A DNA stretch of 54,347 nt from an uncultured Oscillospiraceae bacterium (GTDB lineage Bacteria > Bacillota > Clostridia > Oscillospirales > Oscillospiraceae): positions 1 through 54,347 of the forward strand of contig CALWXD010000146.1 of the NCBI GenBank assembly GCA_944385425.1, read 5' to 3'. This document shows positions 16,939 through 32,182 of the stretch, one piece after another. Under the pieces are notes generated by a model. It saw only the letters and a program-made list of their open reading frames with translations, was not told where the DNA came from and did not search any database. The first letter of the stretch is position 1; the number at the start of each line of letters is the position of its first letter. A program made the translations under genes and the position numbers.

Positions 16939-16946
16939 GAAACAGC

Positions 16947-16984
16947 AAAGGCCCGCAGGCGCATCGCGCCTGCGGGCCTTTTCC
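16947..16984. terminator. bidirectional rho-independent terminator
   Basis: AAAGGCCCGCAGGCGC-atc-GCGCCTGCGGGCC followed by TTTT. It sits between convergent genes. Confidence 0.7.
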
Positions 16985-16996
16985 CGTTCCCTTTCG

Positions 16997-18022
16997 TTAT
17001 TTGAACCGGGTGACGCAGCTGCGGTTGATCTCCGGGAGGCTGTGGACGCCGCACATGGCCATGGTGTCCGCCAGCTCCGCCTTCAGCCGCCGGATGTAGA
17101 GGGCCGCCCCCTCCGCCCCGCCGCCGTAGAGGGCGGGGACAAAGGGCCGGCCGATGAGCACCCCGCGGGCCCCCAGGGCCAGGGCTTTGAACACGTCCAT
17201 CCCCGTGCGGATGCCACCGTCCACCAGGACGGTGAGGTCCTTCCCCACCGCGTCGACGATGGTGGGCAGCACCTCCGCCGTGGCGGGGCACTGGTCCAGC
17301 ACCCGGCCGCCGTGGTTGGAGACCACGATGGCCTTGGCCCCGGCGGCCGCGGCCTTCTCCGCCCCCCGGACGGTCATGATCCCCTTGAGGATGAAGGGCA
17401 GGTCCCCGCAGGCCGCCGCCACCTCCCGCAGCTCCTCCACCGTCTTGCTGCCGGCGGGGGGCGTCAGGTTCTGGAGGAAGGGCAGGCCCGCCGCGTCGAT
17501 GTCCATGGCGATGGCGGCGGCGCCGGCGGCCTTGGCCATCTCCAGCTTGCGGAGGAGGGTGTCCCGGTCCCAGGGTTTGACGGTGGGGATCCCCGCGCCG
17601 CCGCTGCCCTGGATCGCGGCGCAGGCCCCCTCGAACACCCGGGGGTCTGTGCCGTCGCCGGTGAAGGCGGCGATGCCCTCCCCGGCGCAGGCGGGCACCA
17701 GGATGTTGTTGTAGGAGAGGTCGTCGTGCTTGTCGCCGTAGTGCAGCTTCAGCGCGCCAATGGGGGCGGCGAAAATCGGCGCGGAGAACTGCCGCCCCAG
17801 CAGCGCCGCCGACAGGTCCACCGGCTTGTTCTCACAGATGGTGTCCAGGTTCACCAGCACCTCCTGCCACTTCTGGTAGTTGCGGATGGCGCCGGTGCCA
17901 AGGCCCTTGGCCCCGGGGCCGGGCACGGTATTGCGGCAGGCCAGGCCGTTGCACACCGGGCAGGCCTTGCAGTGGGGGCCGACGCAGGTCCGGGCGGCGG
18001 CCAGCACTTCCTCGTAGGTCAT
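16997..18022 (-). CDS. FMN-dependent alpha-hydroxy-acid dehydrogenase/oxidase family protein
   Basis: 341 aa with a TIM-barrel FMN signature (VSNHGGR, GGIRTG). There is an N-terminal Cys cluster CKACPVCNGLAC. SD GAGGAGGAG. Confidence 0.8.
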   Translation of the reverse strand: MTYEEVLAAARTCVGPHCKACPVCNGLACRNTVPGPGAKGLGTGAIRNYQKWQEVLVNLDTICENKPVDLSAALLGRQFSAPIFAAPIGALKLHYGDKHDDLSYNNILVPACAGEGIAAFTGDGTDPRVFEGACAAIQGSGGAGIPTVKPWDRDTLLRKLEMAKAAGAAAIAMDIDAAGLPFLQNLTPPAGSKTVEELREVAAACGDLPFILKGIMTVRGAEKAAAAGAKAIVVSNHGGRVLDQCPATAEVLPTIVDAVGKDLTVLVDGGIRTGMDVFKALALGARGVLIGRPFVPALYGGGAEGAALYIRRLKAELADTMAMCGVHSLPEINRSCVTRFK

Positions 18023-19615: not shown

Positions 19616-20386
19616 CTACAGGGTGGAGAGGACATCCTCCACCCTGACGCAGTGGTTGGGAAAGCGGTCCAGAAGGGGCCGGTGGGCCGTGGCCATAAGA
19701 TAGGCGGTGCCGGCGGTCTCCAGCAGGGGGACGTCGTTGTAGTTGTCGCCAAAGGCCGCGACCTCCCCCGGGGAGATCCCCAGGCAGCGGCACAGCTGCC
19801 GCAGCCCCGTCCCCTTGTCCGCCAGGGTGAAATCCAGCCACGGCTCCCCCGCCACCGCCACCCGGAACCGCTCCCGCCACCGGGGCGCCAGCAGCGGCTC
19901 CACGCCGGCCGCGCCGGTACGGCAGAAGGCCGACACCTTGACGATCTCCTCCGGCACCTCCTCCGGCGCGGAGAGCAGCGCCACCCGGTTGCCCACAAAA
20001 TCCCGGACCTGGACCACCACGTCCTCCGCCTTGGGGCAGAGGTAGCTGGTGTTGACCCCGGAGATCAGCACCTCGCACTCAGGCCGGTCCAGGATCTCCC
20101 GGCACAGCGCCAGGGCCGCCTCCTGCCCCATGGCGGTCTTGCTCAGCACCGGCCCCGCCGCTCCCGGTCCAAAGACCACCGCCCCGTTTTCACAGATGTA
20201 GCAGAGCTCGTCCGCCACCGGGGCAAACAGCCGGCGCAGGCTGCTGTACTGCCGCCCGCTGGCCGGGCAGAAGCCGATCCCCTTCTCCGCCAGCCGGCGG
20301 ATCTGGTAAAAAACCGCCGGGTCGATGGCGGTGCTGCCGTTTTGCAGGAGCGTCCCGTCGATGTCACAGGCAACCAAACGGATCAT
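19616..20386 (-). CDS. Cof-type HAD-IIB family hydrolase
   Basis: MIRLVACDIDGTLL... is HAD motif I. FGDNYNDVPLL is HAD motif III. The ATG at 20386 follows GGAGGGGGAG. The longer track ORF is a GC-rich upstream extension. Confidence 0.8.
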   Translation of the reverse strand: MIRLVACDIDGTLLQNGSTAIDPAVFYQIRRLAEKGIGFCPASGRQYSSLRRLFAPVADELCYICENGAVVFGPGAAGPVLSKTAMGQEAALALCREILDRPECEVLISGVNTSYLCPKAEDVVVQVRDFVGNRVALLSAPEEVPEEIVKVSAFCRTGAAGVEPLLAPRWRERFRVAVAGEPWLDFTLADKGTGLRQLCRCLGISPGEVAAFGDNYNDVPLLETAGTAYLMATAHRPLLDRFPNHCVRVEDVLSTL

Positions 20387-20592
20387 GGTTCTCCCCCCTC
20401 CAGGCGGCGTCCTCCGCCGGGCGGGCGGGGCGCGCGTTTTCTCCCCTAAGCGTAGCAGAAGAGCGGGCCCAATACAAGTGGGCGGATTGGAGAAACCCGG
20501 GGCGAACACCGGCGGTCCTTTTGTACGCTGTGCAAAAAAAGCGGCCCGCCGGCGGGCGGGGCGCGGCGGCAAAAGGCTATGCTCCCTGCATA

Positions 20593-20621
20593 TTGTTCTG
20601 CCCCGGCGCAGTTGCTATAAT
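20593..20621 (+). promoter_or_regulatory. candidate sigma-70 promoter of the TIR/SPFH/RCC1 operon
   Basis: TTGTTC (20593-98), a 17 nt spacer, then TATAAT (20616-21). It lies ~120 nt upstream of the first ATG, in the divergent intergenic region. Confidence 0.45.
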
Positions 20622-20741
20622 TATAGGATAAGAAATTGCATGCGCCGTGGGGCACACCAGGATAACCGGCAAAAGAACGCGGCCCATATCGCAAAACAGC
20701 GGAAACGCCGGCGCGGGCAAAAAAGACAGGAGGAGCGGAAA

Positions 20742-23480
20742 ATGGCCATCATCAAGTGCAAAATGTGCGGCGGGGACATCCAGCTGTCCCCGGACCAGAG
20801 CTTTGGGACCTGTGAGTACTGCGGGTCCACCATGACGCTGCCGAAGGTGGACGACGACCAGCGGGCCGCCGCCTTCAACCGGGGCAACCACTTCCGGCGG
20901 CTGGGGGAGTTTGACAAGGCGCTGGCGGTCTATGAGGGCATCGTCCGGGAAAACGAGAACGACGCCGAGGCCCACTGGTGCTGCGCCCTGTGCCGGTTCG
21001 GCATCGAGTATGTGAAGGACCCGGCCACCGGCGCCTACATCCCCACCTGCCACCGGGCCAGCTTTGACAGCTTTCTGGAGGACGTGGACTACAAGGCCGC
21101 CCTGGACCACGCCGACGCCGCGGCGCGGGAGCAGTACCGCCGAGAGGGGGAGCAGATCGCCCAGATCCAGCGGGGCATCCTCTCCATCTCCCAGCGGGAG
21201 CAGCCCTACGACGTCTTCCTCTGCTACAAGGAGACCGGGGAAAACGGCCAGCGCACCGTGGACTCCACCCTGGCCCAGGACATCTACTACCAGCTCACCG
21301 AGAAGGGCTACCGGGTGTTCTTCTCCCGGATCACCCTGGAGGACAAGGCCGGGCTGGAATATGAGCCCTATATCTTCGCCGCCCTCCACTCCGCCCGAGT
21401 CATGGTGGTGGTGGGGACAAGGCCGGAGCACTTCAACGCCGTGTGGGTGAAAAACGAGTGGAGCCGGTTCCTCGCCCTCATGAAAACAGACCGCAAGCGC
21501 CTGCTGATCCCCTGCTACCGGGATATGGACCCCTACGACCTGCCGGAGCAGCTGTCCGTCCTCCAGTCCTACGACATGAGCCGCATCGGTTTCCTCCAGG
21601 ACCTGGTGCGGGGCATCTCCAAGGTGCTGGAGGGGGAGAAAAAGCCGGAGGTGAAGGAGACCGTCATCGTCCAGGGGGAGGGTGGGGCCAACACCGCCGC
21701 CCTCCTCAAGCGGGGGCAGATGGCCCTGGAGGACGGGGACTGGAACGGCGCCTCCACCTACTTCGACCGGGTGCTGGATATGGACGCGGAGTGCGCCGAG
21801 GCCTTCTTCGGCAAGGCCCTGGCCGCCCGGAAGTGCGCCAACGCCCAGGCCTGGGTGGACCAGCTGATCCACTTCGGCCAGGTGCAGACGGAGAAACGCA
21901 CCGCCTGCGAGGAGGACATGGACCGGGTGGGCGCGGCCATGAAACAGTACTTCGTCCCGGAGTATTTGGACAAGGACGACATCCGCCAGGAGTTCACCCA
22001 CTTCGACCGGCAGTACGACTCCGCCCTCGCCCACTGGCGGCGGCGGGAGGAGGTGGTCCGGCACTTCCTGGAGAGCGACAAGCTGGTGAGCCGGGCCGGC
22101 CGCTTTGCCAAGGGGGACTTCGCCAGGACCCTGCGGGGCTATGAGGACCAGGTCCTCGCGGGCATCCGCCAAAAGCAGGAGGAGGCCGCGGCCCAGGACG
22201 CCCAGAGCGCGGAGCGGGTGAAGGCGGACTATGCCGCCTTCCTTACCGCCACGGAGGAGAAGGCCCAGAAGATGCACGACAACGCGGCGAAACGCCGGGA
22301 GGAGGACTATGCCGCCGCCTGCGCCGCCATGGAGGCCGCGAGGGACTCCCGCGGCTATGCCGACGCGGCGGAGCTCTTCCGGCAGATCGGCCCCTTTGCC
22401 GACTGCCGGGAGCGCTCGGAGCAGTGCCTGGCCCGCGCTGAACAGCTGCGCCAGGAGGAGGAACGCCTGGCCCGGGAGGAGGCGGAGCGGAAGGCCGCCG
22501 CCCAAGCCAAGGAGAAGGCCCGCCGCAAGGCCAAGGCCAAAAAGACCGGCATCATCCTTCTGATCGCCGCCGCGGCGATTGCCGCGGTCTGCGCCGTGGT
22601 GACGCTGGTGGTGATCCCCAACATCCGCTACGGCGAGGCGGTGGAGCTGTGGGACAGCGGCGACGAGCTGGGGGCCATGGAGATCTTCTGTGAGATCCGC
22701 GGCACCAAGGACGCCCAGGACTACTGCGACGAGTTCTTCGCCCCCTATATCGAGATCCTGACGGCCGGGAAATGGGAGTCCTATGAAAAAGAGGTATCCT
22801 ACTCTCCCGGGACCACTTACGAGTATTCTTATACCTTCAACGCGGACGGCACCTGCACCAAAATCTCTAACCGCCGGTGGGAATCGGGCGGGTATCCCCG
22901 CATCAGCAGCTCGGAATATGACTGCACCTACACCCTGGCGGTCCAGGACGGGGATGTGGTGGCCCTGGTCCACGAAACGGAACACGGTTCCGACTACACG
23001 GTGACCGTCTCCCACGGGCGGGACGGCGGCTACCACCTGGAGGAACCCTCTGACGACAGCTTTGACGGGACAAACTTCATCTTCAAGGCGCCGGAGGAGC
23101 TGACGGCAGCGTCCGGGGAGGAGGAAGAGCCTAACGGCAGCGACCTCTATCTGGCGGAATTGATGGAGTCCGACCATGCGCAGGACATTCTCTACGTTTG
23201 GAGAGAGCAGGGCTTTGAGGCGTACCGTGTGGAGGGAAACACCGTCCATTTCATGAAATATGTGACCAACACGGCCGATCTCAGCCTGGAGAAATTACAG
23301 GAAACCTTCAAAAATGAGATCGAGCCGTTGGCGGGGCTGGCAGCAGAACACTTGGCATACCTCTGTGAGCTCTACTATGAAGCCTATGCAGTCGAGCCGG
23401 ACGGAGCGCTCACCTTCTCCATGGAGTACTATGTGGACGACGAGCTGGTCTACAACGTGACCATGGATTCGGATATGTGA
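20742..23480 (+). CDS. zinc-ribbon / TPR / TIR-domain / coiled-coil protein with a single TM and a ~240 aa extracytoplasmic C-terminal domain
   Basis: The N-terminal zinc ribbon is CKMCGG...CEYCG, followed by TPR-like helices. A TIR-like domain spans ~aa 195-330: YDVFLCYKE..GYRVFFSRITLEDKAG..VMVVVGTRPEHFNAVWVKNEWSRFLAL..RLLIPCYRD. It shows the betaA DVFxSY strand, a betaB-like VFFS strand and an SxW..E-like segment. A second TPR module follows (EGGANTAALLKRGQMALEDGDWNGA...), then a ~240 aa charged helical region. The TM is KAKAKKTGIILLIAAAAIAAVCAVVTLVVI with positive charges on the N-terminal side, and a Cys-containing C-terminal domain follows. The ATG at 20742 follows ACAGGAGGAG. Confidence 0.75.
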   Translation: MAIIKCKMCGGDIQLSPDQSFGTCEYCGSTMTLPKVDDDQRAAAFNRGNHFRRLGEFDKALAVYEGIVRENENDAEAHWCCALCRFGIEYVKDPATGAYIPTCHRASFDSFLEDVDYKAALDHADAAAREQYRREGEQIAQIQRGILSISQREQPYDVFLCYKETGENGQRTVDSTLAQDIYYQLTEKGYRVFFSRITLEDKAGLEYEPYIFAALHSARVMVVVGTRPEHFNAVWVKNEWSRFLALMKTDRKRLLIPCYRDMDPYDLPEQLSVLQSYDMSRIGFLQDLVRGISKVLEGEKKPEVKETVIVQGEGGANTAALLKRGQMALEDGDWNGASTYFDRVLDMDAECAEAFFGKALAARKCANAQAWVDQLIHFGQVQTEKRTACEEDMDRVGAAMKQYFVPEYLDKDDIRQEFTHFDRQYDSALAHWRRREEVVRHFLESDKLVSRAGRFAKGDFARTLRGYEDQVLAGIRQKQEEAAAQDAQSAERVKADYAAFLTATEEKAQKMHDNAAKRREEDYAAACAAMEAARDSRGYADAAELFRQIGPFADCRERSEQCLARAEQLRQEEERLAREEAERKAAAQAKEKARRKAKAKKTGIILLIAAAAIAAVCAVVTLVVIPNIRYGEAVELWDSGDELGAMEIFCEIRGTKDAQDYCDEFFAPYIEILTAGKWESYEKEVSYSPGTTYEYSYTFNADGTCTKISNRRWESGGYPRISSSEYDCTYTLAVQDGDVVALVHETEHGSDYTVTVSHGRDGGYHLEEPSDDSFDGTNFIFKAPEELTAASGEEEEPNGSDLYLAELMESDHAQDILYVWREQGFEAYRVEGNTVHFMKYVTNTADLSLEKLQETFKNEIEPLAGLAAEHLAYLCELYYEAYAVEPDGALTFSMEYYVDDELVYNVTMDSDM

Positions 23481-23511
23481 TTTCCGCCAGGCGGAAGGAA
23501 GGAGGAGCACC

Positions 23512-25386
23512 ATGGCAAAATTTGTGATTGAATGCCCCAGCTGCGGGAAGTACGCCGAGGCCAGGACCGGCTTTTTCGCCCGGAAAAAGATCGACTGCGC
23601 CTGCGGCTACACCATCCACGTCCGCACCGACAAGCTGGCCGCCCGGAAGTGTCCCCACTGCGGCAACGAGGTGGTCTTTGACCAGTCCCAGGGGGAGAAG
23701 GCCCGCTGCCCGGTGTGCCACGAGCCCATCAACACCATGGCCGAGCAGACCAAGGTGGAGGAGTTCTCCTGCGCCCAGTGCGGCGTGCGGCTCCAGGCCA
23801 GCAAGAGCGCCAGTACCTACACCTGCCCGGTGTGCGACTTTGTCAACGACGTGCCGGAGCGGCTCATGGCCGAAAAGATCAAAAAGGACGGCCTTGCCAG
23901 CGTCATCAAGTACGAGGGGGACAACGAGACCCTGGTGTGGAAGCACCCTATCGAGGACTTCAACCTGGGGTCCCAGCTCATCGTCCACGAGAGCCAGGAG
24001 GCGGTCTTCTTCCGGGACGGCCAGGCCCTGGACCTCTTCGGCCCGGGCCGCTACACCCTGGAGACCCAGCAGCTGCCCCTGCTGGAGAAGGTCTATGAGC
24101 TGCCCACGGATACGGAGGGCACCTTCCACTCCGAGGTGTACTTCATCAACCTGGCCACCCAGATGGGCGTCAAGTGGGGCACCGACTCCAAGGTGCGCCT
24201 CTTTGACCCGGCCTCCGGATTACACATCGAGCTGGGGGCCAGCGGCGAGTTCAACCTCCGGGTCACCGATTCCCGCCGCCTTCTTTTGAAGGTGGTGGGC
24301 ACCACCGGGGCCCTGGGGCAGGGGGACCTGCTGGGGGGCGGCAGCACCCGGGGCATCTTCCGGGCGCTGGTGATGACCCAGGTGAAGAGCTACCTGGCCC
24401 AGGTCATCAAGGAAAGCGGCATCAACGTCCTGGAGATCGACGCGCGGCTGATGGACCTCTCCACGGCCCTTAGGGACAAGATCAACGAGGGGCTCAGGGA
24501 CTACGGCGTCACCATGCCGGAGTTCTTTGTCAGCCGCATCGTCACCCCCGACGACGACCCCAACTTCAAGCGGATGAAGGAGCAGTACGCCGAGCAGTAC
24601 CTGCTGGTCCGGCAGGAGCAGATCAGGAAAAGCGAGGCGGAGGCCGCCCGGGAGCGGAAGGCCGTGGAGGCCCAGACGGCGGCCCAGATGAAGATCATCG
24701 GCGCCCAGGGGGAGGCGGAGGCCCTGAAGATCCAGCGGGCCGCCGAGGCGGAGGCCTACCGGATGCAGGCGGCGGCGGAGGCCGAGGAGATGCGGATGAA
24801 GGGCTACACCTACCAGCAGGAGACCGCCCGGCAGGTGGGCCTGGAGGCCATGAAAAACGGCATCGGCGGCGGCGAGGGCGGGGCCCTCGGCGACATCGCC
24901 GGCCTGGGGGTGACCCTGGGGGCCATGGGCGGGGTCATCGGCATGACCAGGGAGGCCCTGGGGGACATCACCGGCTCCAGCGCCCAGCTGGGCCAGAGCA
25001 TCGGCGGCATGGTGTCCGCCCCCGCCGCCGGCTGGGACTGCGCCTGCGGGGCAAAGAGTATTACCAGCAATTTCTGCCCCAGCTGCGGGGCAAAGCGGCC
25101 GGCCCCGCCCGCCCCGGCGGACGCCTGGGACTGCGCCTGTGGCGAGAAGGGGCTCACCGGGAAATTCTGTCCCCAGTGCGGGGCAAAACGCCCGGAGCCC
25201 AAGGCCCCGGACACCTGGGACTGCCCCGCCTGCGGCGAGAAGGGACTTACGGGGAAATTCTGCCCCCAGTGCGGGGCAAGGCGGCCCGAGCCCAAGGCCC
25301 CGGACACCTGGGACTGCCCCGCCTGCGGCGAGAAGGGCATCACCGGGAAATTCTGCCCGGAATGCGGAAAAAAGAGAGGTGAATGA
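23512..25386 (+). CDS. SPFH/Band-7 (PF13421-like) domain protein with three N-terminal and four C-terminal zinc ribbons
   Basis: Three N-terminal CxxC...CxxC ribbons come first. The SPFH core (LASVIKYEGDNETLVWKHPIEDFNLGSQLIVHESQEAVFFRDGQALDLFGPGRYTLETQQLP...) resembles B. subtilis YdjI and the COG4260 'virion core protein' family. An A/E-rich coiled coil and a Gly-rich hydrophobic segment follow. Four tandem WDCxCGxKGxTGKFCPxCGAKRP ribbons end the protein. It is coupled to the upstream gene by a 31 nt gap with SD GGAAGGAGGAG. Confidence 0.75.
   Translation: MAKFVIECPSCGKYAEARTGFFARKKIDCACGYTIHVRTDKLAARKCPHCGNEVVFDQSQGEKARCPVCHEPINTMAEQTKVEEFSCAQCGVRLQASKSASTYTCPVCDFVNDVPERLMAEKIKKDGLASVIKYEGDNETLVWKHPIEDFNLGSQLIVHESQEAVFFRDGQALDLFGPGRYTLETQQLPLLEKVYELPTDTEGTFHSEVYFINLATQMGVKWGTDSKVRLFDPASGLHIELGASGEFNLRVTDSRRLLLKVVGTTGALGQGDLLGGGSTRGIFRALVMTQVKSYLAQVIKESGINVLEIDARLMDLSTALRDKINEGLRDYGVTMPEFFVSRIVTPDDDPNFKRMKEQYAEQYLLVRQEQIRKSEAEAARERKAVEAQTAAQMKIIGAQGEAEALKIQRAAEAEAYRMQAAAEAEEMRMKGYTYQQETARQVGLEAMKNGIGGGEGGALGDIAGLGVTLGAMGGVIGMTREALGDITGSSAQLGQSIGGMVSAPAAGWDCACGAKSITSNFCPSCGAKRPAPPAPADAWDCACGEKGLTGKFCPQCGAKRPEPKAPDTWDCPACGEKGLTGKFCPQCGARRPEPKAPDTWDCPACGEKGITGKFCPECGKKRGE
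25030..25380 (+). repeat. four tandem ~93 bp coding repeats (zinc-ribbon units) at the 3' end of the SPFH gene
   Basis: A near-identical repeated nucleotide block (ctgggactgc(g/c)c...ggcgagaaggg...accgggaaattctg(t/c)ccccagtgcggggcaa(a/g)(a/g)cg(g/c)cc(c/g)gagcccaaggccccggaca) is visible directly. Confidence 0.8.
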
Positions 25387-27005
25387 GGATGGCGGCATTG
25401 ACCTGTGAGATCTGCGGCGGCAAGCTGGTGGGAAAGCCGGGGGGCGTGTTCGAATGCGACTCCTGCGGCATGGAGTACTCCACCGAGTGGGCCAGGGCCA
25501 AGATCCAGGAGATCCGGGGCACCGTCCAGGTGGAGGGCACCGTGGAGGTCACCGGCACCGTCAAAGTAGAGGGCGGAGCCAATAAGGAGAGCCTTCTGAA
25601 ACGGGGATACCTGATGCTGGAGGACGGCGACTGGAAGGGCGCGGACGCCTGCTTTGACCAGGTGCTGGAGATTGCTCCCGAGAATGCGGAAGCATATTTG
25701 GGCAAGTCCTGCAGCAACCTAAAATTCCATCGGCTTGCGGAAATACAAGCCGCTGTGAAACAGGGCTGGAGCCCGCGCTTTTCATGGTGGGAGCGTGACA
25801 GCGATCTGCAGCGGGCGATTCAGTTTGCCACCCCGGAGCTCGTTGAACGTATCGAGGCCATAAAAGCGGAGATAAACTCCGCATATACAAGTCACATCAC
25901 TCGGCTTGCGGAAATCCGGAGAAAAAATGCGTCTGCGCGGAAATTGATCTCCTTTGCAGCTGACAGCACGGGAAAAAGCTATATTGCCGGGGTAAAAACC
26001 GACGGTTCCGTCCTTTATGAGGAGTTTTACCACTGGGAGCCCTCCTATAAGCCGGAAAGCCCCCGCCAGGAGCTCTCCGCCTGGCGGGACGTGACCGCTC
26101 TTCTCGGCCAGCTGCGCGGTCTGAAAGCGGATCATACGGTCGTGGAGATCGGCAGCCCCTCCCCGGACGATTGGACGGATGTGGCCGACATGTGGGACGA
26201 CGGGAATCGGGTTATCCTTTTGAAAACAGACGGCACGGTCGTCGCAAGCGGGGAAAATGAGCACGGCGAGAACGATGTTTCCGATTGGAGCGGGATCACC
26301 GCCATAGCGGCCGGCGATGGCCACACAGTGGGCCTCAAGGCGGACGGAACCGTGGTTGCCGTCGGCGCCAATGAGAAAAGGCAGTGCGAGGTGTCCGGAT
26401 GGACGGATATTGTGGCGATTGACGCCTCTGACAACTGCACAGCGGGGCTGAAAGCGGACGGAACCGTTGTCACAACCATTCTCCCCTTTGACGAGAAGAA
26501 CAGCGATACTGTCGCGGTCGCTTTCCCCAACGCACACTCCCTCGACCTGGTCTGCCTGAAGGCGGATGGCTCCGTTGTGACGACATCGGATTCCCTTGCA
26601 CCGGCTCTCTCCAAATGGAGCCATATCGCGGCAGTCCAATGCCGGGACGACGTGTGCGTCGGCCTCACATCCGACGGCAGGGTATTGGCCTCCTCCCCCG
26701 AATTGCAAGATCTCGTGAAAAACTGGAAATTGTTCGGCAGTCTGGACACATTGGAACAGGAGCGGGAAAACGCATGGCGGCAGATCCGCAAGGCCGACGC
26801 CGAGAGGGCCCGCCGCCGGGAGGAGGAGCGGGCCAAGCGGCAAGCCCAGCAGGAGGCGGAGCTTGCCCAGCGCCGGGCCGCCCTAACGGCGGAGCGGGAC
26901 GCTTTACAAGCCGAGCTGGCCGGCCTGAGGGGCCTCTTCACCGGCGGGCGCCGGCGGGAGATCGAGGCGCGGCTGGCGGCCATCGGAAAAGAACTGGAGG
27001 GATAA
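25383..27005 (+). CDS. zinc-ribbon / TPR / RCC1-repeat (beta-propeller) / coiled-coil protein
   Basis: The N-terminal ribbon is CEICGG...CDSCG. A TPR module follows (VEGGANKESLLKRGYLMLEDGDWKGADACFDQVLEIAPENAEAYLGKSC). Six to seven RCC1-like blades have the form G.HTVGLKADGTVVA.G.N..GQC.VS.WT.I.AIAAG. The C-terminus is an R/E-rich coiled coil. The start overlaps the upstream stop (ATGA). Confidence 0.7.
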   Translation: MRMAALTCEICGGKLVGKPGGVFECDSCGMEYSTEWARAKIQEIRGTVQVEGTVEVTGTVKVEGGANKESLLKRGYLMLEDGDWKGADACFDQVLEIAPENAEAYLGKSCSNLKFHRLAEIQAAVKQGWSPRFSWWERDSDLQRAIQFATPELVERIEAIKAEINSAYTSHITRLAEIRRKNASARKLISFAADSTGKSYIAGVKTDGSVLYEEFYHWEPSYKPESPRQELSAWRDVTALLGQLRGLKADHTVVEIGSPSPDDWTDVADMWDDGNRVILLKTDGTVVASGENEHGENDVSDWSGITAIAAGDGHTVGLKADGTVVAVGANEKRQCEVSGWTDIVAIDASDNCTAGLKADGTVVTTILPFDEKNSDTVAVAFPNAHSLDLVCLKADGSVVTTSDSLAPALSKWSHIAAVQCRDDVCVGLTSDGRVLASSPELQDLVKNWKLFGSLDTLEQERENAWRQIRKADAERARRREEERAKRQAQQEAELAQRRAALTAERDALQAELAGLRGLFTGGRRREIEARLAAIGKELEG

Positions 27006-27007
27006 GG

Positions 27008-27709
27008 ATGAAAAAGAATGTGACGCGCTGGTGGATCGTGCTGGGCATCGTGGTGGTGGTGTACAACGTCCTGGCCTTCGCCCTGCCCTTCCCTAAAACG
27101 GCGGCTTTTGCGGTGAGCTATCTCTTCTCCATGGTGGCGATTCTGGCCCAGATCTATGTGATCCGCGCCGCCTTCTGCCAGGGCGAGGGGGTCAAGAGCA
27201 AGTTTTACGGCTTTCCCATCGCCCGGATCGGTCTGATCTACCTGGCCGCCCAGGTGGTTTTGGGCTTTTTGTTCATGGCCCTGGGCCTTCTCTTCCCCAT
27301 CCCCCTGTGGCTGCCCCTGGCGCTGTATGTGGTGCTGCTGGGCGCGGCGGCGGTGGGCCTTGTGGCCGCCGACGCGGCCCGGGAGGAGGTGGTCCGGCAG
27401 GAGGTCCGCGCTGTGAAGGACGTCTCCCTTATGCGCGGCCTGCAGGCCGCGGTAAGCGCCCTGGCGGGGCGCTGCGAGGACCCGGCGCTGCGGCGGGGGG
27501 TGCAGGACCTGGCGGAGAACCTGCGGTTCAGCGACCCGGTCAGCAGCGAGGCCCTGGCATCCGCGGAGGCGGCGCTGTCGGCCTGCGTCGCCCGTCTGCA
27601 GCAGGCGGTGGAGGACCGGCGGCAGGAGGAGGCCCTGGCCCTGTGCCGGGAGGCGGACCGCCTTCTGGCTGACCGCAACCAGCTGTGCAAGCTGAGCAAG
27701 GCCCGGTAG
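27008..27709 (+). CDS. small polytopic membrane protein (4 predicted TM) with a cytoplasmic helical C-terminal domain
   Basis: The ATG at 27008 lies 2 nt after the upstream TAA. Hydrophobic helices (WWIVLGIVVVVYNVLAFAL ... LWLPLALYVVLLGAAAVGLVAA) come first, then an A/R/E-rich helical tail. It is the last gene of the operon. Confidence 0.6.
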   Translation: MKKNVTRWWIVLGIVVVVYNVLAFALPFPKTAAFAVSYLFSMVAILAQIYVIRAAFCQGEGVKSKFYGFPIARIGLIYLAAQVVLGFLFMALGLLFPIPLWLPLALYVVLLGAAAVGLVAADAAREEVVRQEVRAVKDVSLMRGLQAAVSALAGRCEDPALRRGVQDLAENLRFSDPVSSEALASAEAALSACVARLQQAVEDRRQEEALALCREADRLLADRNQLCKLSKAR

Positions 27710-27726
27710 GGGGAGCCTGGCTGGAC

Positions 27727-27771
27727 AAAAAAACACCGGGGGGCAGACGGCGTATACCGTCTGCCCCGGTC
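27727..27771 (-). terminator. rho-independent terminator for the convergent xdh-family operon; hairpin end-stop for the + operon
   Basis: AAAAAAA, then CCGGGGGGCAGACGG-cgtata-CCGTCTGCCCCGG. The U-tract is on the minus strand only. Confidence 0.6.
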
Positions 27772-27792: not shown

Positions 27793-30102
27793 TTACTGCT
27801 GGCAGAGATCGGGCGACTCTTCTTGTATCGCCTTTAGAATTTTTTCGGGTGTAAAGGGCAGCTGGCGCATGTGGATTCCGGCGGCATTGAACAGAGCGTT
27901 GGCAATTGCCGGCGCCACGGTATGTACGGACGCCTCGCCGATGGACTTAGCCCCGTAAGGCCCCGAGGGCTCCTCGCTTTCGGCGAAGGAAACCTCGATA
28001 CAGTCTGCCGGGAGGTCCTCCCGGCACGGGATCTTATATTGCATGAAAGAATCCGTCTGTAGTTTGCCGTTTTCGCCATAGTGGACCTCTTCAAAGAGGG
28101 CCAGCCCAATGCCCATTAAAATTCCGCCCTCCGCCTGCACGCGGGCCAGGGTGGGGTTGATGACCCTGCCGCAGTCAGCCACGCTTACAAATTTTAACAA
28201 TTCCACTTTCCCGGTACGCAAATCCAGGTCAATTTCCGCGAAACCGGACATAAAGGTAAGGGGCGCAAGGCCGCTGACAAATGTTGCCGAGGTGATAATC
28301 TGTTCTGTTCCGCCATGTTCCGCCTTTGTTCCTATCTGTTCAATGGTCACAAATTTTTCCGGATCATTGCGGATAAAGACACGGCCGCCATCAAACTCGA
28401 CATCCTCCGCTGGGCATGCCAGCATTGTAGCGCCAAGCTGGCAGATCATCGGCCGCAATTTTTTTGCCGCAGAGAGGACGGCGTTCCCGGCAACGTAGGT
28501 TGTGGACGAGGCAAAGGCGCCGGAATCATACGTCCCGTAATCCGTATCCCCGCTGCGGATACAAATCCGCTCCGGGACAGTAGACAGGGCCTCTGCCGCG
28601 ATTTGGGTCAACACAGTATCTGAGCCAGTGCCAAGATCCGCGGCGCCAGTAAGCAGGAGATAACTGCCATCCGGTTCCAGCCGCAGCGTTACTGTGGCCT
28701 TATCCGCAACCGGGATGCTGGTGCGATGGGTTGTAAGGGCAACGCCAACCGCGCGGACATGGTCTTGCGAAACGCGGACCCTGGGGTACTTTTGATCCCA
28801 GCCAATCTGCTGCCGCCCCATTTCCATACAGCGGGCCAAGGCGCAGCTTTTGATCTCGCTGTGCAGGATACCGCCCACATCTCCCAGGCGCGCCATATTT
28901 TTTATCCGGATCGTATAAGGGTCCATCTTCAATCTTTCGGCAAGCTCGCTTATGGCGGCTTCTAGGGCAAAGCCGCCCTGGGTCGCCCCATAGCCGCGCA
29001 AGGCGGCGCCCGAGACCCTGTTTGTATAGATGGTGCGCCCACGGTACCAAATGGCGTTGGCCCGGTTATAGCTTGGCAGGATGTTATTGGCAACCACCAT
29101 GGTTACAGGGGGGCCTTCTTCGCCATAGGCGCCTGTGTTGCTGACATTGTCAATTTTAATCGCTTTGAGGACGCCATCCCGGCTGGCGCCTAGGGTTACG
29201 CGCATCTTCATGGCGTGCCGCGTAGTCGTGGTAGAAAAGTTCTCCTTCCTGTCCAGCACCAAAATGGCGGGGCGCCCGGTTTTTAGCGTTACCAGGCCGG
29301 CAAGCGGATCTGTAATCGTTACCTTTTTCCCGCCGAAGCCGCCGCCCACCCGCATTTTAATCACCCGGACTTTGCTGATGGGCAGGCCCAGGCTCCGGGC
29401 AACTTGGCGCCGCATGTGGTAAGGTGCCTGCGTGGTTGCAACGACTGTAAGCCGTCCATCGGGCGCGAGATATGTATAGCTGCGCAGCGTCTCCATCATG
29501 GCATGCGCCTGGGCCTGTGTCTCGTAGACGGCAGTGTGTACGACATCAGAGGCAGCCAGTTCCGCATCTACATCCCCGATATCCACCTGGAAGCAGGAAA
29601 TTTGGTTATGCGCCGGATCATAGCCCGGGGCTAGAACCGGGACATAGAGGTCCTCTACCGCGTGGATCAGCGTTTCCCCGGTCATGCTCTTTTCGGGGTC
29701 AAGGACGGCGGGAAGCATTTCATACTCCACGCGAATCATTTTAAGTGCCTTTTGGGCCGCTTCCGGCGTCTCGGCGGCAACCAGCGCGACCTCATCCCCC
29801 ACATACCGCACAACTTGATCCAGGATCTTTCGATCAAAGGGGGCGTTTTCTGGATAAGAACAGCCGTTGCCGCTATAGCGGATATCTGGGGCGTCTTTGT
29901 AAGTAAGGACAGCTACTACGCCAGGGACCCGTTCCGCCTTTTCCGTATGGATAGCGCGGATCTTGGCATGCGCATGGGGACTTCGCAAAACTTTGATAAA
30001 AAGGGTTCCCGGCAGCTTTGGGAAATCGTCTACATACACAGGAGCGCCCAAAGAAAGTGCCCTCGCGTCGATCTTGGGGAGCTTTAAGCCAATATTACGC
30101 AT
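27793..30102 (-). CDS. xanthine dehydrogenase/aldehyde oxidoreductase family molybdopterin-binding large subunit
   Basis: 769 aa containing Ald_Xan_dh_C and the Mo-cofactor binding domains (GGGFGGK motif). Confidence 0.85.
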   Translation of the reverse strand: MRNIGLKLPKIDARALSLGAPVYVDDFPKLPGTLFIKVLRSPHAHAKIRAIHTEKAERVPGVVAVLTYKDAPDIRYSGNGCSYPENAPFDRKILDQVVRYVGDEVALVAAETPEAAQKALKMIRVEYEMLPAVLDPEKSMTGETLIHAVEDLYVPVLAPGYDPAHNQISCFQVDIGDVDAELAASDVVHTAVYETQAQAHAMMETLRSYTYLAPDGRLTVVATTQAPYHMRRQVARSLGLPISKVRVIKMRVGGGFGGKKVTITDPLAGLVTLKTGRPAILVLDRKENFSTTTTRHAMKMRVTLGASRDGVLKAIKIDNVSNTGAYGEEGPPVTMVVANNILPSYNRANAIWYRGRTIYTNRVSGAALRGYGATQGGFALEAAISELAERLKMDPYTIRIKNMARLGDVGGILHSEIKSCALARCMEMGRQQIGWDQKYPRVRVSQDHVRAVGVALTTHRTSIPVADKATVTLRLEPDGSYLLLTGAADLGTGSDTVLTQIAAEALSTVPERICIRSGDTDYGTYDSGAFASSTTYVAGNAVLSAAKKLRPMICQLGATMLACPAEDVEFDGGRVFIRNDPEKFVTIEQIGTKAEHGGTEQIITSATFVSGLAPLTFMSGFAEIDLDLRTGKVELLKFVSVADCGRVINPTLARVQAEGGILMGIGLALFEEVHYGENGKLQTDSFMQYKIPCREDLPADCIEVSFAESEEPSGPYGAKSIGEASVHTVAPAIANALFNAAGIHMRQLPFTPEKILKAIQEESPDLCQQ

Positions 30103-30104
30103 CG

Positions 30105-30893
30105 TTACACCTCATTCGTCTCTATCAGAGTCCGCTGGCACAGTACGGCACACAACTGCCGCCGGTACTGCGCGCTGGCCCGCATGTTGCTCCCAAAGCA
30201 CAACTCCTCCGCAGCGGTCCGGGCAGCGAGGGAAACCGCCGCTGGATCCCTTGCAAGCTGTTCCATCGCCCCATAGGCAAGAGCCGCGCACATCGGGCGA
30301 GCCCCTACCGCTATGCGGTACCCAGTTTCTGTGCGGACGGATGCCACATTGAGCAGGGAGAAGTCCCCCTTGGAATTTCGGAAATTGGAAAATGCGCCGG
30401 CCGCGTTGCCGGCGGGCAAGATGATTTCGACCAACAGGTCCCGTGTGCGGGGCTGCTTTAGAAACGCTTCCAGGGTAAGCTCCCCTTGCGCAAACAGCCG
30501 GACGCGGGCATTGCAGGCCAGCAGCGGCGTAATGACATCGGAAAACCCATATTTTGAAAAAACGCTGGCACCAACTGTGGCCAGGTTGCGGAACTGCGTA
30601 CCAATAATTTCACCGACAGAACGGCTGATGATGCCGCCGCAATAGCGTCTTAGGAGGGGCGAGGTCTCCAGAGTGCGCAGGGAGCACATTGCGCCAAGGC
30701 GCAGTGTACCGTCGGACTCCTCACGGATGTAGTCTAGACCGCAGCCAGACAGGTCAATGGCAAGGGGGATATCGGCGGAGGTCATCCGAAGGAAGAGGTT
30801 GCCGGCGATGAGGCGGCTGCGCTTATTCTTTTGCAGCAGATTGGCGCATTCCTCAATACTTTTGGGGATAACGTATTCTTTCACCCGGTACAT
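30105..30893 (-). CDS. FAD-binding subunit of xanthine dehydrogenase family enzyme (CoxM/XdhB-like)
   Basis: 262 aa. FAD_binding_5 signature (RLIAGN...). The start is coupled to the upstream subunit. Confidence 0.8.
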   Translation of the reverse strand: MYRVKEYVIPKSIEECANLLQKNKRSRLIAGNLFLRMTSADIPLAIDLSGCGLDYIREESDGTLRLGAMCSLRTLETSPLLRRYCGGIISRSVGEIIGTQFRNLATVGASVFSKYGFSDVITPLLACNARVRLFAQGELTLEAFLKQPRTRDLLVEIILPAGNAAGAFSNFRNSKGDFSLLNVASVRTETGYRIAVGARPMCAALAYGAMEQLARDPAAVSLAARTAAEELCFGSNMRASAQYRRQLCAVLCQRTLIETNEV

Positions 30894-30907
30894 AGAGGGT
30901 CCTCCTT

Positions 30908-31366
30908 TTAGGTCTTAGGCTCATGGCGGAAGAGGGATCGGATTGCCCTAAGCTGCGAGTGATAACCGGTGCAGCGGCAGAGGTTCCCATTCAGATAGTG
31001 GACAATCTCCTCATCGGTGGGGGAGACCAGCTCCCGCTTCATCGCGAGAATGCCCATAATCAGACCCGGCGCGCAATATCCGCACTGGTCCGCCCCCTCC
31101 GCGGCAAGCGCGTCCGCTACAGCGGCAGCCTCCTCCCCCATCCCTTCCACCGTGGTAACACGGCGCCCGTCCGCCCGGGCCGTTGGAACCGAGCAGGAGA
31201 GCACCGGCTTTTCATCGAGCCAAACGGTACAGATGCCGCAGTTCGCACTTTCGCAGCCGGAGCGGACGCTGTGGATCCCCGCGTTTCGCAGGGTCTCCAG
31301 CAAAGGCGTCTCCGGAGCCGCCTCACAGCAGGTCGGCTTCCCATTGATGATGATCGTAAATTGCAT
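30908..31366 (-). CDS. (2Fe-2S)-binding subunit of xanthine dehydrogenase family enzyme (CoxS/XdhC-like)
   Basis: 152 aa. The ferredoxin-type cluster is CESANCGICTV and the second cluster is CGYCAPG...CRCTGY. Confidence 0.85.
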   Translation of the reverse strand: MQFTIIINGKPTCCEAAPETPLLETLRNAGIHSVRSGCESANCGICTVWLDEKPVLSCSVPTARADGRRVTTVEGMGEEAAAVADALAAEGADQCGYCAPGLIMGILAMKRELVSPTDEEIVHYLNGNLCRCTGYHSQLRAIRSLFRHEPKT

Positions 31367-31573
31367 AAGATATCTGTCCTTTCAAAATCATAGAAGAGAT
31401 GGCTTGACAAAGCGGAGAAAACCTTTTACCATATCAAATGCGCCCCTTGTTTCTCCCAAAAGGCTCCGACCAGAACGATCATAGGAGATGGTAACATTAC
31501 TGACCGAGAGATTGTAGAATCATATATCCCTATTGCAAAATTTATTGCGGCGGTATCCGGTCCCCGTTGTGAA

Positions 31574-32179
31574 GTGGTTGTCCATTATCTTGCAGATACT
31601 GACCAGTCCATTATCGCCATCGAGAACGGATATGTGACCGGACGGAAGGTAGGGGATACGCTGATTGATCTGGATCTGCACAGCGTCTTCGCGCCAGAAC
31701 ACATGAGCCTGCCGTTCATCGCAAACTATGTGGGCAAGAGCACCGTAGGGGACAAGATATTCCGTCTATCCACCTTTTACATCAAGAACCCCAAGGGGGA
31801 TGTCGTTGGTCTGCTGAATACAAACGTAGATATCTCTGATTTTATCGCGATGCAGAGCACGATTTCTAAAGAGTTATTTGTAAACGAAAATGCAAAGCTA
31901 CCAGACGGAATGCTGCAGCCCCAGGCCCTGGTGGTCTCAACCAAGTCCATGATTGAATCCACCCTCGCAGAGGCCATGAGCCGGTATGGTTTTCCAGACG
32001 CCGCCGCCTTGGAGCGGGAGGACAAATTGAGGCTGATTTCATATCTGTGTGATCACAATATCTTTGTGCTAAAAGGGGCGGTTGGGATCGTTGCGGATAA
32101 ACTGGGCATTTCTGAGCCGACCACATACCGCTACCTGCAAAAACTGAAAGCGGAAAGGGCCAAAAGCGGAAAGGAATAA
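31574..32179 (+). CDS. YheO-like PAS-domain / HTH transcriptional regulator (N-terminus probably extended upstream, see findings)
   Basis: The sequence ...SIIAIENGYVTGRKVGDTLIDLDL... plus the C-terminal HTH (AVGIVADKLGISEPTTYRYLQKLK) shows the YheO family. The coordinates given are the GTG-initiated track ORF. The conserved family N-terminus (YIPIAKFIAAVSGPRCEVVVH) continues in-frame upstream to at least 31496 without any ATG. Confidence 0.6.
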   Translation: MVVHYLADTDQSIIAIENGYVTGRKVGDTLIDLDLHSVFAPEHMSLPFIANYVGKSTVGDKIFRLSTFYIKNPKGDVVGLLNTNVDISDFIAMQSTISKELFVNENAKLPDGMLQPQALVVSTKSMIESTLAEAMSRYGFPDAAALEREDKLRLISYLCDHNIFVLKGAVGIVADKLGISEPTTYRYLQKLKAERAKSGKE

Positions 32180-32182
32180 AAT

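Follow-up and report, generated by a model that had tools for sequence, protein, structure and literature searches.

We give roughly even chances to the reading that the operon described here encodes a three-component, Clostridia-specific membrane signalling module, together with one accessory protein, that acts in an immune-like surveillance of the cell surface. The operon consists of four co-directional genes, g1 to g4 (20742-27709, plus strand), in a window of 54,347 nucleotides (the whole stretch of DNA analysed) from an uncultured Oscillospiraceae bacterium. The conserved unit within it has three components: one to four TIR receptors, an SPFH protein and a protein with four transmembrane (TM) helices. 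In the function proposed, surface-sensing TIR receptors would be docked on a YdjI-type SPFH scaffold.

Gene layout and the conserved trio

The genes encode a 912 aa single-pass TIR receptor (g1, 20742..23480, identified by Pfam and a TM scan), a 624 aa soluble SPFH protein (g2, 23512..25386, identified by Pfam), a 540 aa accessory protein (g3, 25383..27005, identified by an RCC1_2 Pfam match and by paralogy to g1) and a 233 aa protein of no known family that has four TM helices and, in the cytoplasm, a helical tail (g4, 27008..27709), all on the plus strand. Spacings of 31 nt (g1/g2), a 4-nt ATGA overlap (g2/g3) and 2 nt (g3/g4) reproduce exactly the layout given in a first-pass annotation of this DNA. 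The start of g1 is fixed by an AGGAGG ribosome-binding site read from the sequence 8 nt 5' of its ATG (20728..20733, plus strand) and by the N-termini of its homologues, which begin with MAIIKCKMCGG in agreement with this start. Because all four genes have homologues, and three are syntenic in about 160 loci, they are not chance open reading frames.

The same annotation placed the operon between a promoter-like element and a terminator. A putative promoter-like element upstream of g1 (20593..20621, plus strand), read by eye, is plausible and comprises TTGTTC (20593-20598), a 17-nt spacer and the extended -10 sequence TGcTATAAT (20613-20621). A consensus promoter scan called 0 sites, and the element falls below its threshold because the -35 sequence has only 3 of 6 consensus bases. 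The proposed terminator is a real GC-rich hairpin of 12 bp (27740..27767) between the operon end and a convergent xanthine-dehydrogenase gene. Its T-run occurs on the minus-strand side only, and it therefore formally terminates the convergent gene; the hairpin may also serve as a stop for the plus-strand operon.

Across ~82 loci, the only recurrent families are the TIR receptor(s), the SPFH protein and the four-TM protein, which are always encoded on the same strand (~160 loci from other Clostridia in all). In 56 of the 79 TIR-centred species loci the SPFH gene was found next to the TIR gene, on the same strand in every case. Of 50 independent metagenome loci centred on g4, 49 have the SPFH gene upstream of g4. 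Both SPFH and a TIR receptor are present in all 19 of the well-flanked g4-centred loci, and each SPFH-g4 pair is accompanied by 1-4 tandem receptors. Synteny of the three genes is obligate, and the trio, found in gut and rumen Clostridia, is widespread in those of the gut. The co-conservation of a four-gene cassette, which the annotation had proposed to test, is borne out by synteny for the TIR receptor, SPFH and g4 genes, and fails for the RCC1 gene g3, which is missing from most loci and present in a subset only.

The assignment of g2 as a Band-7 SPFH protein of the YdjI type holds, with a Band_7_1 match of 132 bits (Pfam curated cut-off 24). This protein carries three N-terminal and four C-terminal Cys4 zinc ribbons (11 CxxC motifs) and a Gly-rich low-complexity segment, and the TM scan found no TM helix in it. 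Protein g4, rightly called polytopic before, has four predicted hydrophobic TM helices followed by a helical tail of ~105 aa, with conserved motifs R[FY]SDP[VM]S and, C-terminally, RNxxCKxxK. It has 727 homologues and no match in Pfam, NCBIfam, PADLOC or PHROG, and its low-confidence AF2 model yields no fold match.

Protein g3 consists of an N-terminal zinc ribbon, a TPR, an RCC1 propeller (RCC1_2, 48.9 bits; cut-off 22) and a coiled coil, as previously described, and has no TM helix according to the TM scan. Residues 44-189 share 33% identity (E 8e-16) with residues 289-443 of g1, and g3 is an accessory, TIR-less and TM-less paralogue of the receptor. Full-length g3 orthologues occur in locus L021 and in Pseudoflavonifractor capillosus (L082).

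Markers of a defence island, which had been proposed as a check, were not found around the window locus, where the neighbours are housekeeping genes; serine or tyrosine recombinases lie near some of the other loci. The system is absent from the phage and plasmid collections searched, and it turns up in just 2 of 2.9 million viral contigs. PADLOC models gave no match for g1-g4, TIR included, at E 0.001, with chance-level matches only (E 0.006 and 0.06). There is no matching system in NCBIfam, and no description of a TIR receptor-SPFH-four-TM system was found in the searchable literature, in agreement with the earlier statement that no described system combines TIR, SPFH, RCC1 and zinc-ribbon/TPR modules.

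A conserved TIR receptor with a hypervariable ectodomain

From its N-terminus, g1 comprises a zinc ribbon, a TPR with a Cys/His module, a TIR domain, another TPR, a coiled coil, a TM helix and an orphan ectodomain. The N-terminal module (aa 1-155; 20742..21206, plus strand), recognized by invariant alignment columns, holds the ribbon (CxxC...CxxC), a single TPR and a cluster of conserved His and Cys residues (H78, C81, C84, C103 and H104). More than 8000 homologues of g1 exist, and the N-terminal module is common to 5529 clusters at 50% identity. TIR_2 is present in 47 of 47 divergent proteins bearing this module, which is found only with TIR.

The TIR domain (aa 158-296; 21213..21629, plus strand) was delineated using Pfam, AF2 and Foldseek. 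TIR_2 matches aa 158-280 with 44.3 bits (cut-off 28), with sub-threshold TPR matches on either side. The corresponding part of the AF2 model has pLDDT values of 80-94, and its top Foldseek matches are L7, SARM1, AbTir (TM score 0.76), SNC1, RPP1 and SPARTA; L6/L7, SARM1, AbTir and SPARTA are enzymatic (NADase) TIRs of solved structure. Glu239, the candidate catalytic residue within WVKNEW, lines up with the catalytic Glu in the WCLMEL motif of flax L6/L7 and does not vary among 56 close and 47 divergent sequences. This is a genuine TIR domain with a catalytic-type Glu and therefore not an unrelated flavodoxin-like fold, the outcome that the first-pass annotation had named as its refutation; that candidate is ruled out by the Pfam score, the fold matches and the Glu239 alignment.

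The TM helix (aa 603-625; 22548..22616, plus strand; hydropathy 2.97) is immediately preceded by 8 K/R residues, and the predicted topology is N-in, C-out. The outward position of the C-terminus is supported by the PASTA, SH3_3, LRR_5 and Flg_new domains at the C-termini of relatives. The zinc ribbon, single TM helix and TPRs assigned earlier are retained.

Sequence searches identify the ectodomain (aa 627-912; 22620..23477, plus strand) as strain-specific, and it is predicted to be extracellular. It has no homologue among 5.8 billion proteins and no Pfam or PHROG match. The cytoplasmic region, including TIR, is 73-99% identical to the window protein in homologues from many other Clostridia. 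Two ~99% identical strains differ in g1 only downstream of the TIR end, and are unalignable from the TM helix to the stop codon, which amounts to outright replacement. Protein g1 joins a very conserved cytoplasmic module to a hypervariable ectodomain. The domains that follow the TM helix in relatives are RCC1 (a BLIP-II-like propeller), LRR_5 (an LRR ectodomain occurs in 4 of 47 sampled relatives), PASTA, SH3_3, Flg_new and DUF6273 (C-type lectin). Most relatives carry the RCC1 propeller as the outer portion of their own TIR receptor, not as a protein apart as initially described.

Genes of a diversity-generating retroelement (DGR; Avd and/or RT) adjoin the receptor in 7 of 79 TIR-centred loci, and 76 of the 84 VR/TR mismatches in four loci examined fall at template adenines. 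In relatives from L040, L054, L062 and L079, a C-type-lectin domain joined to a TIR output is DGR-mutated; the window's own receptor is without a DGR. Gut phages also diversify the DUF6273 C-type lectin in their receptor-binding proteins (PMC10743442, PMC11792537), and in other bacteria, sensors that a DGR diversifies and that are fused or linked to TIR effectors have been put forward as antigen sensors (PMC10907252). Hypervariability of the ectodomain, and its targeting by DGRs in relatives, give strong, if indirect, support to the prior suggestion that an extracytoplasmic signal may act on the cytoplasmic TIR domain.

Relation to known systems

Among described systems, the B. subtilis YdjG/H/I membrane-stress module comes closest to the SPFH part; its SPFH protein is recruited to the membrane by one protein with a zinc ribbon and a TM helix and by another membrane protein (PMC8581546; PMC11237479). 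Like the PspA-YdjG-YdjH-YdjI system, the operon encodes an SPFH protein of the Band_7_1 family that is soluble and has a low-complexity stretch and C-terminal zinc ribbon (PMC8581546; PMC11237479), alongside a ribbon-first membrane protein and a second integral membrane protein. However, PspA is absent from the window and non-recurrent across about 160 loci. Unlike YdjG, the ribbon-plus-TM partner g1 carries TIR and a large variable ectodomain; g4 has four TM helices without the TPM domain of YdjH; and g2, compared with YdjI, adds three ribbons at the N-terminus and has four at the C-terminus.

The TIR fold of g1, with its catalytic-type Glu in W-x-x-x-E, and its fusion to a sensor part are shared with immune TIR effectors that oligomerisation activates: SARM1, plant TNLs, AbTir, SPARTA, TIR-STING and Thoeris ThsB. 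Whereas those proteins are soluble and sense in the cytoplasm, g1 is membrane-anchored with a predicted extracellular sensor, and it has no ThsA-like, SAVED, STING or Argonaute partner here.

A DGR-mutated C-type-lectin domain with a TIR output, as in the relatives above, resembles the putative antigen sensors of multicellular bacteria, which are linked to TIR or peptidase effectors (PMC10907252; PMC7159879). These sensors, from Proteobacteria and Cyanobacteria, have a STAND or MoxR NTPase as their base, whereas the present system, from Clostridia, has no NTPase and instead ties a single-pass receptor to an SPFH and a four-TM protein.

Proposed function and its alternatives

In the mechanism we propose, the variable C-terminal domain of g1 would face outward and bind a ligand, with the zinc ribbon/TPR/TIR half in the cytoplasm. 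Proteins g2 and g4 would together build a shared platform beneath the membrane for the docking of one or several receptors, so that the three proteins would make up a complex. Protein g3, which keeps the presumed docking parts (zinc ribbon and post-TIR TPR), would most likely serve that platform as a regulator or adaptor. Ligand at the ectodomain would alter receptor clustering on the SPFH platform, and self-association of the TIR domains would then switch on NAD+ cleavage, resulting in NAD+ depletion or an ADP-ribose-derived signal. The ligand is probably non-self or fast-evolving; candidates include phage particles, surface molecules of competitors or of the host, and fragments of the cell wall. 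We favour immune-like surveillance because the pattern of ectodomain diversification points to such a ligand, and a defence or abortive-infection role may be included in it.

A narrower version of this explanation is strict anti-phage abortive infection, in which the ectodomain or platform detects adsorption or DNA injection, TIR depletes NAD+ and the cell stops or dies. It is possible, and we rate it at somewhat under one chance in three. The catalytic-type TIR, ectodomain replacement at strain level, tandem receptor repertoires, recombinases near some loci and DGR variation in a C-lectin domain shared with the receptor-binding proteins of gut phages are all in its favour, whereas PASTA and SH3_3 ectodomains suggest cell-wall rather than phage ligands, the window locus lies outside any defence island, PADLOC gives no match and, to our knowledge, no characterised defence system senses outside the cell. 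We consider it unlikely that the locus is a module for membrane maintenance or envelope stress resembling YdjG/H/I (Psp-associated), with an SPFH core, g1 and g4 as anchors and TIR as scaffold rather than enzyme. The YdjI-like build of g2, the requirement of YdjI for a zinc-ribbon-first membrane protein (YdjG) and a second membrane protein (YdjH), and the housekeeping chromosomal context would fit, but the missing PspA and TPM-domain protein would not; a catalytic Glu and motif that stay invariant over thousands of family members are unexpected in a purely structural TIR, and hypervariable, DGR-targeted ectodomains are left unexplained.

Still more doubtful is a surface adhesin or display system, in which the ectodomains would attach to host glycans, mucus, dietary polymers or other cells, SPFH would cluster them, and the cytoplasmic part would anchor and sort. 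Such a role would suit ectodomains built from well-known binding modules (RCC1 propeller, BspA-type LRR, Listeria-Bacteroides repeats, SH3 and C-lectin) and varying between strains; in gut bacteria, DGRs often target surface binding proteins. However, a cytoplasmic part of ~600 residues whose enzyme-type TIR is near-invariant goes far beyond what an anchor needs, Pfam detects no cell-wall sorting signal or S-layer homology domain, and the RCC1 propeller of g3 sits in the cytoplasm. Fortuitous juxtaposition of unrelated genes that form no functional unit is refuted by the synteny counts and has a negligible chance of being correct: TIR, SPFH and g4 are same-strand neighbours across many species and metagenomes with unrelated flanks, and the coding sequences overlap or nearly abut.

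Several observations count against the immune-like reading. The TIR domain is never swapped for another effector (47/47), unlike in many modular defence proteins, and adhesins, too, typically have hypervariable surface domains. The surroundings are housekeeping, with no PADLOC match and near-absence from phages and plasmids. Genes g1-g4 encode no known sensor of a TIR-derived nucleotide (SLOG, Macro, SAVED or CARF) and no other effector domain, and the g4 model is poor and uninformative.

Immune-like surveillance invites comparison with animal Toll-like receptors, which are likewise single-pass proteins with an extracellular ligand-binding domain (LRR in 4 of the 47 relatives of g1 sampled) and a cytoplasmic TIR, and of which several paralogues likewise come together as a repertoire. 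The orientation is inverted, however, with TIR N-terminal and the ectodomain C-terminal here, and the TIR of g1 has an enzyme-type Glu, in contrast to a scaffold that recruits adaptors. Nothing points to common descent for the architecture as a whole. The system looks like a bacterial counterpart of Toll-like receptors.

Operon layout and encoded proteins

The four genes, referred to here as g1 (TIR receptor), g2 (SPFH protein), g3 (RCC1 accessory protein) and g4 (four-transmembrane protein), lie on the plus strand at 20742-23480 (912 amino acids), 23512-25386 (624 amino acids), 25383-27005 (540 amino acids) and 27008-27709 (233 amino acids). From g1 to g4, successive genes have a 31-nt gap, an ATGA overlap of 4 nt and a 2-nt gap between them, and both this spacing and the protein lengths agree with the first-pass annotation. 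The start of g1 was set by an AGGAGG located 8 nt upstream and by homologues that share the N-terminus MAIIKCKMCGG. A HAD-family hydrolase gene (19616-20386, minus strand) is divergent from g1 across an intergenic region of 354 bp.

The promoter-like element at 20593-20621 (plus strand; TTGTTC, a 17-nt spacer and TGcTATAAT) has a perfect extended -10, but a consensus promoter scan returned 0 sites at its thresholds because the -35 is weak. The hairpin following g4 (27740-27767, 12 bp) is present, but its T-run is on the minus-strand side. In formal terms it therefore terminates the convergent xanthine dehydrogenase gene, although it may act in both directions. An Rfam scan of the window identified no RNA element in the operon region. 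The divergent intergenic region also contains a terminator-like GC hairpin followed by a T-run (20535-20560, minus strand). This hairpin, which has no Rfam family match, lies upstream of the HAD gene start at 20386 and could be a leader or attenuator of that gene.

Several lines of evidence bear on the domain previously assigned as TIR in g1. Residues 158-280 match TIR_2 (PF13676) with 44.3 bits against a Pfam cut-off of 28, with sub-threshold TPR matches on either side, and the same domain is matched in all 47 divergent g1 relatives. An AlphaFold (AF2) model of residues 1-320 has pLDDT values of 80-94 across the TIR part, and the best 42 matches in a Foldseek search of the PDB with this model are all TIR domains. 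The list is headed by enzymatic TIRs (flax L7/L6, SARM1, C. elegans TIR-1, AbTir, SNC1, RPP1, RUN1 and SPARTA), with TM scores of 0.76 for AbTir bound to an NAD analogue and 0.67 for SARM1. A sequence search of the PDB with the TIR segment gave a weak match to L6/L7 that aligns WVKNEW with WCLMEL and places Glu239 on the catalytic Glu; this residue would correspond to SARM1 E642. No variation is seen at Glu239 or in the W-V-x-N-E-W around it among 56 close homologues or among 47 divergent cluster representatives. The fold matches, the Glu239 alignment and this invariance therefore indicate, at the level of sequence and model, a TIR of the enzyme type, for which NADase activity is predicted. 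The TIR call thus withstood the test set for it, that of a fold unrelated to TIR, with the PDB fold matches, the Pfam score and Glu239 in agreement. Sequence searches of the PDB with whole g1 and with g2 returned only TPR and ribosomal zinc-ribbon noise, and an exact-sequence look-up of g1 found no record.

The g1 protein carries one strongly hydrophobic helix (residues 603-625). Because KEKARRKAKAKK just precedes this helix, the N-terminus is predicted to be cytoplasmic and the C-terminus to be outside the cell. Between the TPR and the TIR, residues 78-104 (20973-21053) include a near-invariant His/Cys cluster (H78, C81, C84, C103 and H104) that flanks a predicted beta-hairpin and may bind zinc at a second site, as part of a conserved module that is uncharacterised.

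The remaining domain assignments, Band_7_1 in g2 and RCC1_2 in g3, also score above their Pfam cut-offs, as TIR_2 does. The g2 protein matches Band_7_1 (SPFH) with 132 bits (cut-off 24) along with several zinc-ribbon models. It has no TM helix; Cys4 ribbons number three at the N-terminus and four at the C-terminus, alongside a low-complexity stretch rich in Gly, and its profile score, solubility, low-complexity segment and C-terminal zinc ribbon are those of a YdjI-like SPFH protein. The g3 protein matches RCC1_2 with 48.9 bits (cut-off 22) and shares with g1 a zinc ribbon and the TPR/helical segment that follows the TIR (33% identity, E 8e-16), while having neither TIR nor TM. The g4 protein has four TM helices followed by ~105 helical residues and matches nothing in Pfam; its AlphaFold model is poor (pLDDT 65.8), and Foldseek gave no PDB match better than E 0.35. 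The idea that g3 and g4 are one split gene was dropped because g4 directly follows the SPFH gene in most loci.

Additional observations concern g3 and g4 in particular. The third-position G+C of g3 is 0.74, compared with 0.85 for g1 and 0.92 for g2, and a local dip in identity occurs at 25473-25771 between two near-identical strains. The lower value and the dip together hint at a separate recombination or a more recent acquisition of g3. In L001, the contig of the near-identical strain, single-base indels at 14699-17021 cause g3 to be called as fragments of 111, 269 and 142 amino acids and g4 as fragments of 135 and 98 amino acids. These indels are probably long-read assembly errors, and pseudogenisation may be the alternative.

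Conservation of the cluster and variation of the ectodomain

More than 8000 homologues of g1 are detectable, and its first 155 residues alone match 5529 clusters at 50% identity. When one genome per species was scanned, at least 590 g1-family matches were obtained, nearly all from gut, rumen or faecal Clostridia, and those listed include Lachnospiraceae, Oscillospiraceae, Ruminococcaceae, Christensenellales, Acutalibacteraceae and Anaerovoracaceae. Most relatives are MAGs, and the few labelled as non-Clostridia might be binning errors or transfers. Pseudoflavonifractor capillosus is a culturable carrier; the Blautia, Roseburia and Ruminococcus relatives are so far MAGs only.

From the at least 590 species-genome matches, 79 TIR-centred loci were kept. 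A Band_7_1 SPFH gene is present in 56 of these loci, always on the strand of the TIR gene, and 48 of the 79 carry both this gene and a g4 homologue. Restricting the count to the 20 loci that have sufficient flanking DNA on either side gives 17 with SPFH. Tandem TIR paralogues, two to four in number, occur in 24 loci. An independent g4-centred sample comprised at least 80 metagenome contigs and was collected with a closer set of g4 sequences, since an alignment of 23 diverse g4 sequences was too divergent for the metagenome scan. Among the matches listed, SPFH lies directly upstream of g4 on the same strand in 49 of the 50 loci with enough sequence, and SPFH and a TIR receptor are both present in 19 of the 19 well-flanked loci.

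When all ORFs of the TIR-centred loci were clustered, the only recurrent families were the TIR/g3 family, SPFH and g4, with flanking genes that vary by species. The genes are ordered either receptor(s)-SPFH-g4 or SPFH-g4-receptor(s), and the SPFH protein is either long with N-terminal ribbons, as in the window, or short and YdjI-like. Receptor(s), SPFH, g3 and g4 follow one another as in the window also in L021 (an Oscillospiraceae MAG) and in L082 (P. capillosus GCA_016899775.1), the latter with three receptors. Of the four-gene cassette initially proposed, the TIR family, SPFH and g4 are thus co-conserved and g3 is an accessory component only. In six to seven loci, a tyrosine recombinase (Phage_integrase family) gene lies just upstream of the SPFH gene (L040:6095-6952, L050:6930-7769, L064:5287-6126, L066:1053-1895, L068:1725-2573, L079:3707-4564 and L117). 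This enzyme might have a role in inversion or in the exchange of cassettes at the cluster, or might simply be the mark of a mobile element.

Within g1, conservation depends on the side of the membrane. Homologues from many other Clostridia share 73-99% identity with the window protein over the cytoplasmic zinc-ribbon/TPR/TIR module. Pairing of this N-terminal module with effectors other than TIR was tested, and TIR accompanies it in 47 of 47 divergent family members. The L001 contig is 99-100% identical to the window over ~23 kb, except inside g1. There, identity falls from 89% to 73% from the end of the TIR domain onward and is wholly lost from the TM helix to the stop codon, before returning to 100% at the first base of g2. 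The window ectodomain has no detectable homologue among 5.8 billion proteins or in the near-identical sister strain, and BLASTP found no similarity to the P0001 and P0019 ectodomains.

The C-termini of the 47 divergent members are diverse, comprising RCC1 (11), DUF6273 (6), BspA-type LRR (4) and ankyrin (2), as well as Listeria-Bacteroides repeats and SH3_3 or PASTA. Ankyrin excepted, all are modules typically used by Gram-positive bacteria for binding outside the cell. The RCC1 type resembles BLIP-II, a secreted propeller that binds proteins and that is matched by a profile built from the RCC1 ectodomains of the relatives. A lectin-type ectodomain is found in 39 of the 79 TIR-centred loci.

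In some relatives, the outer domain is the target of a diversity-generating retroelement (DGR). Genes for bAvd and/or reverse transcriptase (RT) occur in 7 of the 79 loci, and the Avd gene is directly downstream of the receptor gene wherever its position was checked. Complete cassettes, directly downstream of TIR-receptor genes in other species, lie at L062:6520-8572, L040:12424-14477, L054:12446-14535 and L079:12161-13009. In these four loci, which are those examined for repeats, the variable repeat (VR) is the 3' end of the receptor gene, within its C-lectin end, bAvd and RVT_1 genes are adjacent, and the template repeat (TR) lies between Avd and RT. Mismatches between VR and TR fall at TR adenines in 24 of 26 cases in L062, 16 of 17 in L040, 19 of 20 in L054 and 17 of 21 in L079, and these adenine-specific differences are the signature of a DGR. 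The mutated segment is the C-terminus of DUF6273, a C-type-lectin-like domain that gut phages are already known to diversify by DGR in their receptor-binding proteins (PMC10743442, PMC11792537). In the window, RT, Avd and TR are all absent, and thus its g1 is not classed as a DGR variable protein.

Genomic setting and comparison with known systems

The window is otherwise housekeeping in character. Upstream of the operon are a BlaI/BlaR1-like pair, an FMN dehydrogenase, DUF4349 and HAD genes, and downstream are xanthine dehydrogenase subunits, a permease, F420-linked oxidoreductases and UvrC, with folate genes further on. No PspA, DGR, transposase or recognised defence gene was found in the window. 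An origin on a phage or plasmid was rejected because the TIR module has no tblastn match in phage and plasmid collections and occurs at only two loci in IMG/VR.

Three neighbouring regions deserve description in their own right. At 11131-16938, a BlaI-like repressor and a 976-residue BlaR1-type M56 sensor are followed by a 786-residue protein without a Pfam match. The ~13.6 kb at 27793-41378 has a G+C content of 51-58%, compared with ~65-70% around it, and a GC3 of 0.6-0.75 versus ~0.9. This stretch encodes xanthine-dehydrogenase subunits, a purine/cytosine permease, two luciferase-like (F420-type) monooxygenases, an F420-dependent oxidoreductase, an F420 ligase-nitroreductase fusion, a PLP enzyme and an ECF S-component, and was probably gained by horizontal transfer as a metabolic island; Clostridia do not usually carry F420 genes. 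Finally, a THF riboswitch (Rfam RF01831, 73 bits; 52317-52421, minus strand) lies beside the folate one-carbon genes for FTHFS (48164-50005), FolD (46475-47356) and a 5-FTHF cyclo-ligase fusion (41642-42664).

The cluster is none of the known TIR systems compared here, whose defining partners it lacks. Thoeris combines a ThsB-type TIR with a ThsA effector (SIR2 or TM plus Macro, with SLOG), whereas no SIR2, Macro or SLOG was detected here with Pfam. CBASS and Pycsar systems with TIR effectors have a CD-NTase or a pyrimidine cyclase, neither of which was found in g1-g4 or the neighbouring genes, and the STAND or MoxR NTPase core of STAND and ternary NTP-dependent conflict systems has no counterpart in the operon or its recurrent neighbours. 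PADLOC models gave no match to g1-g4 at E 0.001, and PADLOC, NCBIfam and PHROG scans of the four proteins returned nothing meaningful.

The only described relative of the SPFH and 4-TM partner pair is the B. subtilis YdjG/H/I set, in which two membrane proteins, one of them with a zinc ribbon and a TM, recruit a soluble Band_7_1 protein to the membrane (PMC8581546, PMC11237479). However, the Psp-YdjGHI module has a linked pspA and the TPM-domain protein YdjH, whereas the window has no PspA or TPM match and the loci no fourth recurrent family. The cluster shares with known kinds a TIR output of the enzyme type, an SPFH scaffold whose membrane partners carry zinc ribbons, and lectin sensors diversified by a DGR. 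In the openly searchable literature, no description was found of a transmembrane TIR receptor combined with SPFH and 4-TM proteins as its obligate partner, nor of any other system that joins TIR with SPFH.

A candidate receptor system

Functional statements on this cluster draw on sequence, predicted structure and synteny. The best-supported reading of these is that it would be a receptor system with one to several single-pass receptors whose outer domains are free to vary. The inner TIR halves are presumably constant because they must fit a common SPFH and 4-TM partner. By analogy with YdjG/H/I, g1 and g4 would tether g2 beneath the membrane, where the SPFH assembly could gather or separate receptors and in this way act as a switch. 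Such a switch is plausible because TIR enzymes are generally switched on by self-association, as for SARM1, plant TNLs, AbTir and SPARTA.

The cluster may instead serve a Psp-like role in membrane maintenance, given its YdjI-like SPFH protein, or may display adhesins, given its extracellular binding modules. Both proposals account less well for the invariant catalytic Glu or for the hypervariable outside. The replacement of alleles between strains, the orphan domains and the programmed hypermutation argue, by inference, for a ligand that is fast-evolving non-self material and for an immune-like role. The tandem receptor repertoires point the same way, as does an earlier example in which TIR effectors are linked to sensors that a DGR diversifies (PMC10907252).

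We offer, as a tentative proposal that could well prove wrong, that gut Clostridia carry a large and hitherto undescribed family of transmembrane pattern-recognition receptors in which a hypervariable, sometimes DGR-mutated ectodomain would detect phage or other non-self outside the cell and a cytoplasmic NADase TIR on an SPFH scaffold would signal. To our knowledge, characterised bacterial TIR systems sense inside the cell, and we know of no description in bacteria of surveillance by an outward-facing, rapidly diversifying membrane receptor. There is a real possibility, though less likely than not, that the cluster represents a categorically new way for bacteria to carry out immune sensing outside the cell. 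With more than 5000 clusters and at least 590 species-genome matches, this is a major and uncharacterised protein family in a group of importance to the microbiome. DGR targeting of the receptors provides natural variation for finding ligands, and the obligate SPFH link suggests a possible concrete role for flotillin-like proteins of bacteria in organising how receptors cluster. If the proposal is true, these bacteria would possess an innate-immune system that senses extracellularly, a functional analogue of Toll-like receptors.
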